This document shows positions 5,441 to 38,835 of a stretch of 64,000 nt of DNA, in pieces; position 1 is the stretch's first letter; the number at the start of each line of letters is the position of its first letter. Under the pieces are notes generated by a model. The model made no database searches. It was given only the letters and a program-made list of their open reading frames with translations, and was not told the DNA's origin. Made by a program: the position numbers and the translations under genes. The stretch comes from Octopus vulgaris (taxonomy: Eukaryota). The stretch is taken from NCBI GenBank assembly GCA_951406725.2, contig OX597818.1, positions 58,466,001-58,530,000 on the forward strand, given 5' to 3'.

Positions 5441-5454
5441 AATATCTAATCAGA

Positions 5455-5521
<67 letters not shown>

Positions 5522-5558
5522 TATTATTATTATTATTATCATTTTAAAAATTTTATTT

Positions 5559-5750
5559 TCAGGTCACTGCCTGGAACTGAACTCGGTATCTTGGGGTTAC
5601 TAGTCCATGCTCTTAACCACTACGACATATACCCAGATTCGAAATTTTCCCAAGACACCTCATGAAGGCTGGAGGGCATATCAGCCGAAACGCTGTGTTA
5701 ACAACAAAAAAAAAAAAAAGGAGGACAAATATCCGTTAAATGTAAATAAA
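5559..5750. mobile_element. Family D variant: inverted tRNA-like head fused to plus-strand HHR unit
   Basis: Minus head 5559-5630 joined at catataccc|agattcgaaatt to the HHR unit (core mutated, CTCATGA); same junction type as at ~20185. Confidence 0.75.
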
Positions 5751-7169: not shown

Positions 7170-7351
7170 GTAACATCGAAAAATGCCTTAGGAATGGGAA
7201 CCCAGGTGGGAAATGTCCCCAAGATACCTGATGAAGGCTACAGGGTATATCAGCCGAAATTGTTAACAACAAACAAGATGAGGACAAATATCTGTCAAAT
7301 GTAAATAATTTAAATAACGTACACAATTTCTCATCGCTTAAATAAAGAACT
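7170..7351 (+). mobile_element. Family D HHR unit after (TAA)n
   Basis: catcgaaaaatgccttagg...CTGATGAaggct...cagccGAAA...cttaaataaagaact. Confidence 0.8.
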
Positions 7352-7730
7352 GGATTTATTTGTCTTATCCATGATACTTTTCTTGATTTTCGAGGTCGAG
7401 GGAATGTATTAGTAAGCTATACCTTGAATGCCTGTTTGCTAAACACAGCACAATACTTAACCTGCCATGGTCAGCATAATTTTGCTAAAAGCAGAAGAGA
7501 ACTTATGGCGGTCAAATAAGGACTTTAGATGACCTTCCGCGCTCTCTCCTTCAAAGAAATTACATTCCAGAGATTTTATCTGGGTCAATTTAAAGTAACA
7601 CATTCCCGTAATGATTTCCTATGAGTACGTACAGGAACCAAGGCTCTACAAACTCTTAAAATGTAGTCAGAGTTCAATGCTCAGCGTAATTCCATTTCCT
7701 AACAAAATGGTACACATTGTTAGATATTTT

Positions 7731-13043: not shown

Positions 13044-13780
13044 ATATATATATATTGCATTTTATGCATAGTAATCAGAGTAATCTTAATAAATTTTATC
13101 GAATCAGGTACATATTTTATCTAAGTTAGGCACTGCCTACCTTGCCTACCTAGACGGCACATGTGTATGTGTGTGTCTTTGTGTTTGTCGGCACCCAGTA
13201 CTTGTTAACCAGCGTTGAATTGCTAATGTTCCTGTAACGTAGTTCGGCAAAAGAGGTTGATAGCATAAGTATCAGACGTAAAAATAAGTGCAATACTCTA
13301 TTTATTTGAGTAAATAATTCTAGGTGCAGACAAAGCTTAGCCATTGTCCAAATGACTGCAACAAATATAAAAGATAAAATTTGTTATTGTCTGCGACAGT
13401 CAAATTCTATAGAAAACTAGTAAAACCAAGATTTCCAGAAAAAAGACTTGTGACCGACATTAATTGGTGCGGTTTGTTACAAAAATCAAAAGAAATATCT
13501 TGCAGTTGTTGAAAAGCAGACACGCTGGGAAAATGTTTTTAATGATTAATATGTATTGGCTGGGTGTCAAATTCGGGTACTCGCGTGACAGCAAAACATT
13601 TTACCACAAAACCATTAATGTACACACCTTTGAATATTCTCAGTTATTAAAAGATTTATGAAATAAATTTAACATGGTAAAATTACTATTAAAAAGGAAT
13701 CAAAAGATATGGAAGTGATGTTCGGAAAGATATTTGTAAAATGGTTTTATATGAAATAGAATATGTTGCGTGGGCATGAT

Positions 13781-13925
13781 ACATTATTTACAATTGACGG
13801 ACATTTGTCCTCATCTTGTTTGTTGTTAACACAACGTTTCAGTAGATATACCCTCCAGCCTTCATCAGGTGTCGTGGGGAAATTTTGAATCTAGGTTCTC
13901 CTTCCTTAGGTATTTTTCGTTGTTG

Positions 13926-14003
<78 letters not shown>

Positions 14004-14144
14004 ACTGCGCCATATGCCCGTAGGCATATGTCGTAGTCGTTAAGAACGCAGGCTATTAAGCCCAAGACTCCGAGTTCGATTGCAGGCATTGACCTGAATA
14101 ACAATAATAATAATAACAACAACAACAACAACAACAACAAAAAC

Positions 14145-14198
<54 letters not shown>

Positions 14199-14383
14199 AA
14201 CATCGAAAAAGAATTCATAGGAATGAGAACCGAGGTTCTAAATTTCCCAAGACACCTGATGGAGGCTGGAGGGTATATCAGCCGAAACGTTGTGTTAACA
14301 CACAAGACGAGGACAAATATCCGTCAATTGTAAATCATGTAAATAATGTACATAATTACTTATCTCTTAAATATAGAACTGTA
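13781..14383. mobile_element. Family D fold-back element (clearest copy)
   Basis: Minus HHR unit 13781-13925; palindromic centre catatgcc-cgta-ggcatatg 14011-14030; tRNA-like head to ~14098; (TAA/CAA)n; plus HHR unit 14200-14383; TSD tgggcatgat 13771-13780 / tgggcataat 14384-14393. Confidence 0.9.
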
Positions 14384-14494
14384 TGGGCATAATAGGTTTT
14401 TACTGTAAAACACCTTTGGCCTTTTGTTGCAATTTTGTATTTGGTTTTCAAATTAACATCTCACTCTCTCTCTCTCTCTCTTCCTCTCTCCCTC

Positions 14495-18935: not shown

Positions 18936-19564
18936 TATATATATATGTATTTATACATATGTGGTTATGGTATATTCTGTTAAGAACGTAGTAGAGTACA
19001 GTATAAATCTCGTCCACCTTCAGATTTCATTATTCAGTAGTAGTATTATACGTACCTCCAGGTTTGCCTTTGGTCATCTATCGTGTGTGATTAGATGACT
19101 GAATACATTTGGAGTCAATAAGAAGTACGATTTCACGTTTATTTATTAGTGGGGGGAACAGAGTCCTTCCGTGCATATGGTTGTTCTAGACTATGTAGAC
19201 TGACTATATGGCTTGCCTCGGCATAGTGCCAGATGCGTGGGTATAGAGGTTAGATATATGGAGCCATTTTCGTAATCTACAGCATGCTGATAGAAAGCCT
19301 TGTTAAGTTTCGTTTTAAGTAGCTATTCGATTGTTACCATAACCTTTAGCTTATAAATGTTTTACTATGAAAAGTTCAGTAAGGTATTTGTATGTACACT
19401 CCTGACTCTTTTTTCTGTTTCAATGTTTTTCTAACTTCGCAGCTGACATGTAAGTTTGTAGCATATATCACTCAGATGTTATTGTGTAATTGAGCAGATC
19501 TACTGAAAGTGCTTGCTAGTTCCCTATACAGTTTCGCTTCTGCAAATAAAAGAATATGAACCTT

Positions 19565-19822
19565 CTTATTTACATTTGACGTATATTTTCCCCCGCCTTT
19601 TCGGTTGATATACCCTCCAGCACTCATCGGGTGTCTTGGAGAATTTTCGAACCTGGATTCTCAATCATAAGATATTTTTCGATGATGTTATTATTATTGA
19701 TATTATTATTATTATTATCATTGTCATTTACTTTTAATCTGCATGTTTGATGCAATCACCTGCCGGGGCACACCCAGCGCCCTAGGGCAAGTGAAGGTTA
19801 AGAGTTGTTGAAATATAGCTGA

Positions 19823-19887
<65 letters not shown>

Positions 19888-20010
19888 TTATATATATATT
19901 TTTTCCGTCTTTCTTCAAATTTTCTTCCGTTTCTCGCCGAGTGTTTTCCGTACACCTAGGACAGAGGAACTTATTGTATGCTTTCCCAGATTACACACGC
20001 AATTTCACAG

Positions 20011-20056
<46 letters not shown>

Positions 20057-20358
20057 CATTATTATTATTATTATTAATATTACTATTATTGCTGTTGTTG
20101 TTGTTGTTGTTAAGGTCACTGTTTGGAATCGAACTCGGTATCTTGGGGGTCAGTAGCCAGCGCTCTTAACCACTACGCCATATGCACAGGTTCGAAATTT
20201 CCCCAAGACTCCTGATAGGGGACGGAGGGTATATTAGCCGACACGTTGTGTTAACGACAGACAAAATGAGGAAAAATAACTGTCAAATAAAAATAATGTA
20301 AATAATGTAAATAATGTAAATAATGTACATACTTCCTCATCTCTTAAATATAGAACTG
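19565..20358. mobile_element. Family D fold-back element with nested inserts in its (TTA)n tracts
   Basis: Minus HHR unit 19565-19690; minus tRNA-like head 20112-20185; plus HHR unit 20187-20358; TSD tatgaacctt 19555-19564 / tatgaaactt 20359-20368. Confidence 0.8.
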
Positions 20359-21248
20359 TATGAAACTTATAGTTATCATACCGTATTTTTACATTGGTTA
20401 CAGTAATAACACACACACACGCAGGTACACAAGCACATGCGCAAGCACTCACATTCAGGTGCGCACATTCGCAGCATTTTTCTCCCATAAACACTGATGT
20501 CTGACAGGTCAATAGGTGACAAGGGGTCTAGCTCCTTTTGTATTTGTGTTTGTATGCATCAGCTTACTTATTTATTACTATGTTTCTATGGGTCTCTATG
20601 CGGTGATTAAGATTTTGATATTTTTTTTTTTCTGCGGTGAAAAAGTATCTATTGCTAATATTAACCAGTCACACTAATACAGACAGAAAAAAAAAACAAA
20701 AAATAAAACTTGTTAATAGCCTCTTTCTTTTTTGTTATGTATATAATTTTTCTGCTTTCAGTTACCACGCATCTTTTCCTTTGGGTATACATTATTGAAA
20801 AGATGTGCTCACATTCATACATTAATTATCATCGTTCATATTACCAAGAATGTTTCCTGTGTATGAAGAATAAATATTTCTGTATATATATATATATAAT
20901 AAATCTATTTAGTATTTGCCTACGAATATAATCCGTTCAGTCAGAACACTTTTTTTTATATTTTCTCAGTTGCAGTTTTTCCTATTGTGAGGCTGAAGGT
21001 CAAAATTATTGGCAAAAATCTAAATAACATATTTCTCTTTGCTTTTTATTTATTTCATAGTAGTCTATTATTCAGTTGAAGAAGGAAGATGTGGAGTTCT
21101 TCTAGTGGCAAACGTCGTTGTAGCAATATATATCGCCTGACATACAATAATATGTAATGAGTCTCCCGAACGAACACACACACGCAGAAAATTATACAGT
21201 ACGTTGTGAATCTCTATTTTATCGTCTATATTGAGTACATATTCCATG

Positions 21249-28720: not shown

Positions 28721-29043
28721 GAAACCACTGACTTAGATGATTCATGACTCTACCTTTTACACAGCTTCCTTTTTTGGACTCTGACAGAGTTTTATCGATG
28801 TTTGCATTTACTATATTCGTTTTATGTTTTGTCTCTGACAGACAATTCAGGCAAAGAACGTCAGCAAAAAGAGGCGAAATACCCAGCGGATTTCATTGGT
28901 CTTTATGTTCGCAGTTCAAACTCCACCGACGTCGATGTTGTCTCTCATCCTTTCGTACTCCATAAAATAAATACCAGTTCAGCACTACCTCCCTCTTCAC
29001 AAATTGTAAGCCGTGTGCCAAAATTTGCAACCGTTATGAATGC

Positions 29044-29606
29044 AGTTCTATATCTAAGAGATATTCTTTACTCTTTTACTCTTTTACTTGTTTCAGTCAT
29101 TTGAGTGTGGCCATGCTGAAGCACCGCCTAAAGTCGAGCAAATCTATCGCAGGACTTATTCTTTGGAAGCCTAGTACTTATTCTGTCGGTCTCGTTTGCC
29201 GAACAGCTAAGTTATGGGGACGTAAACACACCAGCATCGATTCTCAAGAGATGTTAGGGGATAAATACAGACACACAAACATATATACACGCTCACACAC
29301 ACACACACACACATATACGATGGGCTTCTTTCCGTTTCCGTATACCAAATCCATTCACAAGGCTTTGGTCGGCCCGAGGCTATAACAGAGGACACTTGCC
29401 CAAGGTCCCACGCAGTGGGACTGAACCCGGAACCATATGGCTGGTAAGCAAGCTACTTACCACACAGCAACTCCTGAGGAATTATGTACATTATTTACAT
29501 TATTTACATTTGACGGATATTTGTCCTGATCTTGTGTGTTCTTAGCACAACGTTTCGGCAGATATATCCTTCAGCCTTCATCAGGTGTCTTTGGAAAATT
29601 TCCATG
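29044..29606 (-). mobile_element. 5'-truncated family D copy with near-intact HHR, interrupted by SINE B (29066-29478)
   Basis: Minus gacac-CTGATGA-a-ggctg...ctgcc-GAAACGTT-gtgc at 29545-29589; TSD atgaatgc 29036-29043 / 29607-29614. Confidence 0.8.
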
Positions 29607-29655
29607 ATGAATGCTTCTTCAATATACAAATACTCCGGGAAACAGATATACAGAA

Positions 29656-32499: not shown

Positions 32500-34304
32500 T
32501 TGAAGACCAACTGAAGGATACAACCTTCTATTGTGAAATACCCGCAAATATAGACCACCACATCATGAAAAAGATCAACAACCTGATTTCAACACACCAC
32601 AACTCACTTACGGATAATGAAAAAGACTACATCACCAATTTTGAACCAAAACCCAGCAACTTCTACGGCTTACCAAAAATACACAAATCAAAAAACATTC
32701 AACAGGCAGTAAAAGAACAAGAAAGTGAGTACATAAAATTATTACATCCAAAAGACCTAAAACTTAGACCTATTATAGCTGGTCCAGCATGCCCTACACA
32801 CCGTCTAAGCAATTTTATTGACATTGTTTTGAAACCACTATGTACTTACATACCAAGTTTCATCAGGGATGACATCGACTTCCTGTCCCATCTTCCCAAA
32901 ACAACAGAAACAAATTCAGTTTTGCTAAGTTTTGATGTGGTAAGCCTCTACACCAATATTCCACACGATTTAGGAATAAAGGCGATTAAATACTGGTTAG
33001 AAAAACATAGAGAAGTGATTCCCAGCAGATTCACAGTGCCATTTATATTAGACACAGTCAAACTTATTCTAGAAAATAACACATTCTTCTTCAATGGAAA
33101 GAATTACATCCAAATTAGAGGCACGGCGATGGGAACGAGGTTTGCTCCCGTTTACGCCAACTCTGTAATGGGATACTTAGAAGAACAACTCTACCAAGAG
33201 GTGGAGGTAAACTATGGCACTGGATTTAGAAAGTATATTGAAAAGGCATGGAAGAGATACCTAGACGACTGTTTCATAATCTGGACAGAATCTCTAAATA
33301 CTCTGGAAGAGTTCAATATCCTCCTGAACAACCTACACCCATCTCTCAAATTTACAAAGGAGATGAGTAGTACCAAATTACCATTCCTGGATATAATGGT
33401 AATTAAAAAAGACACCACCATCACCACAGATATATACTATAAACACACAGACACACATCAATACCTAAATTTTAAGTCGTGCCATCCACCACATACAAAA
33501 CGTAACATCCCATACTGCCTAGCCAGAAGAATTTGTACTATTGTAGAAGATGCAAATATCAGGAACAAACGCCTAATAGAACTAAGAGAATTTTTGCTCA
33601 AACAAAAATACCCATCTCTACTTATAGAAAATGGCATACAGCGGGCTATAAAAATACCTATACAACAACTTAGGACAACCCAAGGAAGAGGAAAACAAGA
33701 ACAAGTCATACCATTCATAGTGACACACAACCCATGTCACCAGAATATCTTCAACATTGCCAAAGCAAACCTACCAATCATTGCCCAAAGTAATGAATTA
33801 AAAGACATAATCAAGGATCGAGCTATGGTGCTTAGTAAAAGACAGCCTAAAAACTTGAAAACATTACTAACAAAGGCAAAATTTGACCTCAGCAACAAAG
33901 ACCAAACATTCACGGTATCTAAATGCAATGATAGCCGATGTGGCACATGCCAATTCATACATACCGGTCAATATATAAACACAAAAACCGGGAAAATATT
34001 CACAAACGCGAATATGAACTGCAAAAGCAGAAATTTAATTTACTGCATCAAATGCCCAAATTGTGAAGAAATATATGTAGGTCAGACGGGAAACGCACTA
34101 TTAGAACGCTCACGTGTACACCGGCAACAGATTAGAGACCCAGAGGTCCGTCAGATACCTTTGAGTAACCACCTAGCAACATGTGGTCGGAAAATATATA
34201 TAATATTTCCATTCTACAAATTACACAGCCCAAGTGAAATCGAGAGGAAAATCAGAGAAAAGAATTTTATTGATAAATTCGAACCCAAGCTAAATAAGCA
34301 ATAA
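32496..34304 (+). CDS. Penelope-like element polyprotein (reverse transcriptase + GIY-YIG endonuclease), 5'-truncated
   Basis: About 600 uninterrupted codons: FYGLPKIHK, LRPIIA, FDVVSLYTNIP, GTAMG, RYLDDCF, Cys linker CNDSRCGTC, NLIYCIKCPNCEEIYVGQT, RSRVH. The track's ATG at 32436 lies upstream of the (TA)n and is not a credible start. Confidence 0.95.
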
Positions 34305-34963: not shown

Positions 34964-35029
34964 ATATATATATATATATATATATGTGTGTATATATATA
35001 TGTATGTATATATATATACACACATACAC

Positions 35030-38597: not shown

Positions 38598-38806
38598 TGT
38601 GACCGCGTGTGTATCGTTGGCGATTGTTTCATCCGTCTTCCCTTCCTTGGATCTTTCCTTTGTCTATGTTTCTGATGAAGAGCCCCATTCGAAACGTTAA
38701 ATCGTCCGTCTTTCTTTCCTTCCTGTGCGCCCAATAACACTATACTTGTTTCACGTCCTCGCGTTGTTGTGTTTTCTCTTTGAGTTTTCATGTTTCGATT
38801 AACTAA
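38598..38806 (+). mobile_element. Family F ~200-bp HHR element in (TATG)n
   Basis: gttt-CTGATGA(38672)-a-gagccccattc-GAAACGTT-aaat; copies at 39478 and 50920. Confidence 0.8.
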
Positions 38807-38835
38807 CTATGTATATATGTATGTATGTGTGTATG

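Follow-up and report, generated by a model that had tools for sequence, protein, structure and literature searches.

Insertions of Penelope elements have a recognisable shape. In the portions at hand of PMC3846280 and PMC8557442, an inverted pLTR, a one-sided tail, a target-site duplication (TSD) of 8-10 bp and junction palindromes are described for Penelope. The tail is explained by two internal reverse transcription (RT) start sites, according to the portion of PMC11167929 at hand, where it is also stated that in Anolis the RNA must extend well past the RT start site (first 172 nt of the ORF). Penelope-like elements (PLEs) also carry minimal type I hammerheads. As characterised in the accessible part of PMC4209133, these have an unpaired base between positions 9 and 10.1, G10.1-C11.1, a helix I of 4-5 bp and a palindromic 15.2-16.2 with no loop 3; in metazoans they occur mostly as dispersed single copies, ascribed to truncated PLEs.

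Two further systems come close from the side of RNA polymerase III (Pol III). The schistosome SINE Sm-alpha carries a type I hammerhead, as an excerpt of PMC8490949 states. TRIMp3 elements bear a Pol III promoter in their terminal repeat, and their autonomous partners are argued, in the available text of PMC10886601, to require RNA polymerase II (Pol II).

Structure of the focal insertion and its relatives in the window

The insertion studied here lies at 13771-14393 of the window, the whole 64-kb stretch of Octopus vulgaris DNA that was analysed. Its plus arm opens with a tRNA-Arg(ACG)-derived head (14022-14098), with a worn A box at 14029-14039 and a B box at 14072-14082; in the master element this head is likely an internal Pol III promoter. 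A (TAA/CAA)n spacer follows at 14099-14200, a segment that secondary insertions target in other copies. The spacer leads into positions 1-186 of the hammerhead module (14201-14384, plus strand), which is the 5' coding end of a Penelope ORF; the first ATG is at 14223 and the frame is shifted in this copy. A minimal type I hammerhead spans 14251-14296 (+), with its core at 14256-14262 (A9 changed) and 14284-14291 and a predicted cut after 14291. The last stretch, 14345-14384 (+), is the Penelope 'tail', a 3' extension present on the plus arm only.

The inverted arm, on the minus strand, is shorter. It consists of module positions 1-143 (13780-13922), that is the short 3' end without the tail, a (TAA)n spacer that reads (TTA)n on the plus strand (13923-14001), and the first ~19 nt of the tRNA-like head (14002-14020), the remainder of the head being missing there. 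Its hammerhead core is intact (13868-13862 and 13840-13833) and its helix II is damaged. Both arms meet in a palindromic junction at 14011-14030, exactly as written in the initial annotation. This junction is centred on a near-palindrome passed on by the master element, in which it spans the boundary between the ORF end and the head. Plus-strand TSDs at 13771-13780 and 14384-14393, 9/10 identical, enclose the whole. The layout first proposed from the letters alone, a head, spacer and module with a head-to-head inverted arm, holds base by base.

Six family loci lie within the window, and three of them are clear fold-backs. The second fold-back, at 563-1263, has a minus arm (module 1-97), a head at 741-815 and a plus arm with an insertion at about 1003-1198. 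The third, at 19555-20368, has a secondary insertion inside (TAA)n and its head on the minus strand (20110-20185). At 5453-5749, a minus-strand head (5558-5633) is joined to a plus module arm (5631-5749), and a second module arm was not seen. A full module at 7174-7355 (+) stands downstream of a long TAA-type run, with no head seen. The last locus, 29036-29614 (-), is a single 5'-truncated arm split by another repeat and flanked by an 8-bp repeat; neither head nor second arm is present. Four flanking direct repeats had been listed beforehand, 13/13 at 563/1251, 9/10 at 13771/14384, 9/10 at 19555/20359 and 8/8 at 29036/29607, and all are as given, the 13/13 repeat overlapping the element's own last bases. 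The accompanying claim that each of the four encloses a fold-back stands for three, since 29036/29607 bounds one interrupted minus arm. A different short family forms a long head-to-head inverted repeat at 2638-2888, matched in Rfam only as a hairpin.

Loci outside the window come from best-hit searches, apart from an unselected sample of forty fixed-position 10-kb pieces (399,900 bases) of the 2.8 Gb, AT-rich genome. This sample holds four family loci, which corresponds to ~28,000 insertions genome-wide (95% interval 7,600-72,000). The window is therefore locally rich in the family.

An autonomous Penelope/Poseidon-type element with the same end-repeat

The parent element was found by tblastn beside one head-query locus. 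At L088, an ORF with RT motifs and an endonuclease-type region ends just upstream of the head, on the same strand; it matches RVT_1 at E=1e-6, and Pfam GIY-YIG gave no match to this worn fragment. Among 29 loci retrieved with the ORF as query, the query locus itself not counted, 25 reach the ORF end and four are 3'-truncated; beyond the ORF end we find the head in 22/25 and the module in 23/25. With the ORF start as query, the module precedes the ORF in 22/29 loci and runs straight into the ORF N-terminus. The element order is head, (TAA)n, hammerhead module (which is the ORF start), RT/endonuclease ORF, then again head, (TAA)n and module. The pLTR thus flanks the ORF and overlaps its start, and the reading frame is continuous.

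The module frame aligns unbroken, ribozyme-coding stretch included, with residues 18-61 of an intact 847-aa homolog (P0004), and an Anolis homolog of 836 aa can be aligned to the ORF start (E=1e-22). The per-codon majority of the ORF covers 811 codon positions without a stop. The ORF copies are 91-96% identical to their own majority, and no intact one was identified among those examined. We retrieved 419 longer homologs with RT and PLE-type domains, with a best identity of 64%. In a quick tree that contains no named reference elements, the ORF groups on the side of the Anolis homolog, apart from three Zn-finger-bearing PLEs of the genome (SH-aLRT 100); we infer the Poseidon label for this Anolis homolog.

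Judging from this arrangement, head, (TAA)n and module are the pLTR and tail of an autonomous Penelope/Poseidon-type element. The initial annotation had proposed that the tail be compared with the pLTR of an autonomous PLE; it does match, and the head and (TAA)n belong to that pLTR too. Solo arms (143), ORF-3'-linked arms (39) and ORF-5'-linked arms (22) share every common variant, and the length variation consists of an in-frame 9-nt unit found in the solo and both ORF-linked classes. The shared variants give no sign of a separate SINE lineage. As head, spacer and coding module all lie in the PLE pLTR and no separate lineage is seen, the short copies would be end-repeat copies and not a SINE that captured a tail. 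The original designation of an independent non-autonomous ribozyme SINE is thereby made improbable: every part of the unit belongs to the pLTR of an autonomous PLE, and no private variants were seen.

Other partners were considered and rejected. The Zn-finger PLE families, retrieved in a genome search with Pfam GIY-YIG, have repeats that do not match the module, and a 16-nt match to the ORF end of a Zn-finger PLE was treated as chance. A LINE with a restriction-like endonuclease, whose ends we take to be of the Dong/R4 type, has its 3' ends upstream of the module in L005, L007, L021, L027 and L030. Heads lie further upstream in some of these LINE-bearing loci, which is consistent with later insertion into (TAA)n. 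The 3' ends of this LINE and of another short repeat recur in the (TAA)n spacer, in the five loci just named and in L003, L024, L205, L213 and L224; the spacer apparently acts as a landing site for other repeats.

Further PLEs were noticed on the way. At 32500-34300 (+), with its 3' end near 34970, the window contains a 5'-truncated PLE ORF of another family (RT, Zn-finger-like linker, GIY-YIG); its protein is 99.7% identical to that of L067, and the copy is young and inserted in (TA)n. The min-HHR descriptor finds no hammerhead in Zn-finger-linker PLE families such as this one. Another young PLE family, on G000:C16, C17, C6, C3 and others (L061-L065), has many intact 781-aa ORFs and pLTRs of 300-500 bp that are 99-100% identical within a copy.

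The hammerhead ribozyme

The hammerhead sequence written in the initial annotation is, to the letter, the majority of 47 full module arms. This majority contains the core CUGAnGA...GAAA..UH with helices I and II and a palindromic helix III: one unpaired A, a helix II of 5 bp, a loopless palindromic ACGU and a helix I of 5 bp. As also remarked there, no window copy has a perfect hammerhead; genome-wide, 56/96 arms spanning the ribozyme keep the core intact. Conservation of the core (0.936) is no better than that of neighbouring bases (0.933), so inserted copies decay neutrally, and covariation within the family is consequently uninformative. Of the common variants, just one falls within the ribozyme core, at the free position N7, as expected if the source elements kept the fold.

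The min-HHR descriptor gives three matches in the 400 kb of unselected genome and 0 in each of ten shuffles. The same motif follows the ORF in 20/80 related metagenome loci. Aligning 15 motifs, from this family (two rows), a second hammerhead family and 12 related elements, we find 84.6% of cells paired versus 60% when shuffled, with 47 double changes, helix II having been preselected by the descriptor and helix I (70.7%) not. Rfam reports neither hammerhead nor head in the window among the matches listed (150 of 297), which are only microsatellite-driven miRNA matches; on eight loci, all 46 matches are again microsatellite-driven miRNA, with no head and no hammerhead.

The predicted cut, after module position 90, coincides with neither insertion end; by its predicted position, the hammerhead does not set the insertion ends. 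We infer that the hammerhead is inherited from the PLE and that folding of helix III needs a partner copy.

The second minimal-hammerhead family just mentioned occurs at 38600-38810 (+) of the window and in L147-L166. It is about 230 bp long and has no tRNA head; it has a fairly fixed 5' start and ends in (TA)n. A first look gave 1,941 candidates, and its parent was not found.

The tRNA-derived head and the start of copies

The head aligns from +1 with the genome's own tRNA-Arg(ACG) genes, the only isotype compared, and keeps A and B boxes. Its local score of 70, against a mean of 29 and a maximum of 48 in 2000 shuffles, bears out the tRNA-derived head with both boxes that had been read from the letters. 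Identity to tRNA-Arg is 18/22 in the boxes, not clearly above the 33/51 of the remainder. ARAGORN found no tRNA in the window and did not report the head; at low threshold on related loci it returned noise. The module lies downstream of 27/29 best head matches, on the same strand, and head and module therefore form one unit. A tRNA-Arg-like segment is absent from all 44 related elements with a 3' flank (best score 40), in which the screen for other tRNA types consisted of a strict box pattern only. Elsewhere in the genome, at G000:C2:211887733-211907122, some two dozen tRNA-Arg(ACG)-type motifs form an array, many of them spaced 206 bp apart.

Copies tend to begin at the head start. Outside the ORF-query loci there are 65 head-bearing arms, 56 of which extend to the head start: 46 of these have their end between -9 and +5 relative to tRNA +1, one ends at -12, and nine continue at least 20 nt into the ORF end. 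Loci selected by module only behave similarly, with 12/16 ending in a 15-nt zone at tRNA +1 and 5/21 lost across the 72-nt head. Two ORF-bearing copies, L210 and L226, likewise begin at the head start. Neither inverted head nor ORF sequence stands upstream of 33/57 head-start arms. A further 15/57 sit in head-to-head junctions, which the 12-nt near-palindrome at the ORF-end/head boundary could explain without a start site. At L166:1010-1090, a junction holds four tandem repeats of the head's first ~20 nt, which suggests repeated template jumps at the RNA 5' end.

The sense strand is also free of T-runs. There is no TTTT in the head, the module or the 2,370 nt majority of the ORF region, where 4.1 are expected from base shuffles, 2.3 from dinucleotide shuffles and 2.7 from synonymous-codon shuffles (P=0.012, 0.076 and 0.032, respectively); the signal is modest, and GGGG is likewise absent from the same majority. 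Two other PLE ORFs of the genome have eight TTTT each. Related ORFs have 549 against 492 expected, with 1/74 at zero; the T-run-free related ORF L234 has no tRNA head. The pLTRs of relatives that were inspected are T-rich. Taken together, the pile-up of starts, the absence of the head from 44 relatives and the lack of TTTT point to a Pol III promoter at the head, possibly reading the whole coding element.

The insertion footprint

We compared 39 fold-backs, 18 from module-query loci, 16 from head-query loci, two unselected and three from the window. The two arms of a copy differ in where they stop, one near module position 181-189 and the other, mostly, at 139-159. The long end, an extension of 30-45 nt, is on exactly one arm in 38/39 and on both in none; module-query loci were selected for one long arm, and in the others the extension is one-sided in 20/21, the exception, L089, being a mis-pairing by the script. 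Flanking direct repeats are mostly 10-14 bp. A TSD score of at least 7 is reached in 31/39 fold-backs, compared with 5.5% of mismatched flank pairs: a single TSD encloses both arms, and head and tail were inserted as one unit, as had been suggested. A TSD search around non-inverted copies mostly found none. Microhomology of at least 2 nt is present at 10/19 abutting junctions versus 16% expected, the 20 non-abutting junctions being excluded. The one-sided tail, the head-to-head arms and the TSD are a Penelope footprint, which agrees with the earlier preference for Penelope over LINE enzymes.

The L089 copy (312-1662) has an unusual architecture: a head, six head-to-tail modules and a short inverted arm lie inside one 13-bp flanking repeat, and the first and last units share private changes.

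Discussion

We consider it probable that these repeats are short pLTR insertions of an autonomous Penelope/Poseidon-type element. The RT and GIY-YIG-type endonuclease of that element likely made the copies; as template they would have used RNAs that Pol III likely transcribes from the tRNA-derived head onwards. The endonuclease would nick both strands about 10-14 nt apart, by analogy with Anolis Poseidon in vitro as reported in the accessible part of PMC11167929. Reverse transcription would prime inside the RNA at two sites in the initial ~165 nt of the ORF (module ~139-159 and ~181-189), and from each nick one cDNA would extend towards the RNA 5' end. The two cDNA ends would then join via 2-4 nt of microhomology or via the 12-nt near-palindrome at the head start. 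Priming in the 5' pLTR would yield short copies; priming in the downstream pLTR of a tandem would yield ORF-bearing ones.

A bolder and rather doubtful reading extends this scheme to the whole element. An autonomous Penelope would have replaced its Pol II promoter with an internal promoter captured from a tRNA-Arg and lost the T-run terminators over its full ~2.8 kb; Pol III would make both template and message, and internal priming would give rise to tens of thousands of SINE-like copies. The SINE would then have been born as the retrotransposon's own end-repeat, not as a parasite. Uncapped Pol III RNA is a poor message.

An alternative that seems unlikely to us gives the tRNA-derived piece no role: it would descend from an old SINE or tRNA pseudogene that was trapped at the end of the ORF and is carried along passively, Pol II would read through, and the pile-up would be caused by RT stalling at the structured head or by annealing of the two cDNAs at the near-palindrome. 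The near-palindrome does lie exactly at the pile-up, and 15/57 arms use a head-to-head junction; the second hammerhead family, without a tRNA head, also has its fairly fixed 5' start; box conservation is not clearly above background, and the copies reaching into the ORF (9/56) need RNA from upstream of the head. Yet the palindrome is not used by 33/57 of the head-start arms, the ends cluster around tRNA +1 to +5 and a few preceding bases, and the sense strand is T-run-free whereas the inspected pLTRs of relatives are T-rich. According to the SINE proposal, the short unit would be non-autonomous yet independent, with source copies of its own that Pol III transcribes and the PLE enzymes move in trans. 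Against it, the autonomous element also carries the head and spacer, solo-specific variants are absent and length variants are in frame; if the Anolis RNA requirement holds (PMC11167929, portion at hand), solo copies would lack the binding site and be dead on arrival. We regard the proposal as quite improbable. In its favour, short copies greatly outnumber those with ORF sequence: the 400 kb of unselected DNA contain four family loci and no ORF piece, and the window has no ORF piece either. Transcription would be possible from any solo copy whose boxes are intact, six modules stand in tandem in L089, and PLEs can mobilise sequences in trans, as stated in the available text of PMC3846280.

There is very little chance that the family is a non-LTR retrozyme, in which self-cleavage of tandem hammerhead units yields circles that reverse transcription returns to the genome. 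Tandem modules occur in only a couple of the loci examined, and among head-query loci in L089 alone; insertion ends do not match the cut site, and most copies are head-to-head, not head-to-tail. What speaks for it is L089 itself, whose six head-to-tail modules lie within one TSD and where dimeric cleavage could work, together with the proposal, in the part of bioRxiv 10.64898/2026.07.22.740005 at hand, that animal retrozymes are PLE derivatives.

If the head of the Penelope/Poseidon-type element is a working promoter, it links Pol III SINEs and PLEs, classes thought separate, and offers a way for a SINE to arise without capturing a tail. Should Pol III read the ORF as well, this would contradict the common view that Pol II is required by autonomous retrotransposons, as found in the consulted sections of PMC10886601 and PMC5786205. 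Independently of this, the short copies, which number in the thousands and have one defined 5' end and two defined 3' ends, document Penelope integration on a large natural scale. The strict rule of one long and one short arm, together with microhomology at the junctions, makes the two-primer integration model directly testable. Some of what is counted as 'SINE' in such genomes may consist of PLE end-repeats. Three tRNA-derived retroposons of octopus were reportedly described by Ohshima and Okada in 1994, and the present family may overlap these SINEs.

Measured against the SINEBase definition, in the section of PMC3531059 available, the unit has the head with boxes derived from a Pol III RNA; it is not a distinct non-autonomous lineage reverse-transcribed by a LINE. 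Our literature search found no tRNA-headed PLE pLTR, no Penelope-mobilised SINE and no autonomous Penelope with a tRNA/Pol III promoter. The first two are absent from the portions at hand of PMC3531059, PMC5786205, PMC8967140, PMC9115989, PMC8490949, PMC10886601, PMC13282606 and bioRxiv 10.64898/2026.07.22.740005. Repbase, Dfam and the octopus repeat library of PMC13282606 may hold the family.

Comparison with known systems

Poseidon of Anolis carolinensis (PMC11167929) and Pen2a_Av of Adineta vaga (PMC3846280), in the available parts of their descriptions, likewise have a pLTR that overlaps the ORF start and a hammerhead whose cut site lies inside the coding start. They share with the octopus element the head-to-head inverted pLTR, a 30-40 nt tail on one arm and an 8-10 bp TSD enclosing all, as well as palindromes at the inverted junction, partial tandems and solo pLTRs. 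The promoter of the Pen2a_Av pLTR is, according to the same text, TATA/Inr-like and of Pol II type, whereas the octopus pLTR opens with a tRNA-Arg-derived segment with A and B boxes. The ribozyme itself is indistinguishable from the minimal metazoan PLE hammerheads of Cervera and de la Pena (2014), as characterised in the accessible part of PMC4209133; that part mentions no tRNA head in these systems, unlike the octopus element.

The schistosome tRNA SINEs Sm-alpha and Sj-alpha also have a head with A and B boxes and form short, dispersed, high-copy units. Compared with tRNA SINEs, however, the octopus unit has no LINE-type 3' tail, shows the Penelope footprint and is part of an autonomous element. 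The nearest concept to a tRNA-headed PLE pLTR is TRIMp3, whose members Cassandra, Helenus and Ajax also have a small-RNA-derived Pol III promoter in the terminal repeat (Kojima 2024, PMC10886601, in the portion at hand); they are non-autonomous LTR elements, whereas the octopus tRNA segment resides in the terminal repeat of a protein-coding PLE. The footprint and the ribozyme of the octopus family are thus already known, and it is the tRNA-derived start of its pLTR that is unusual.
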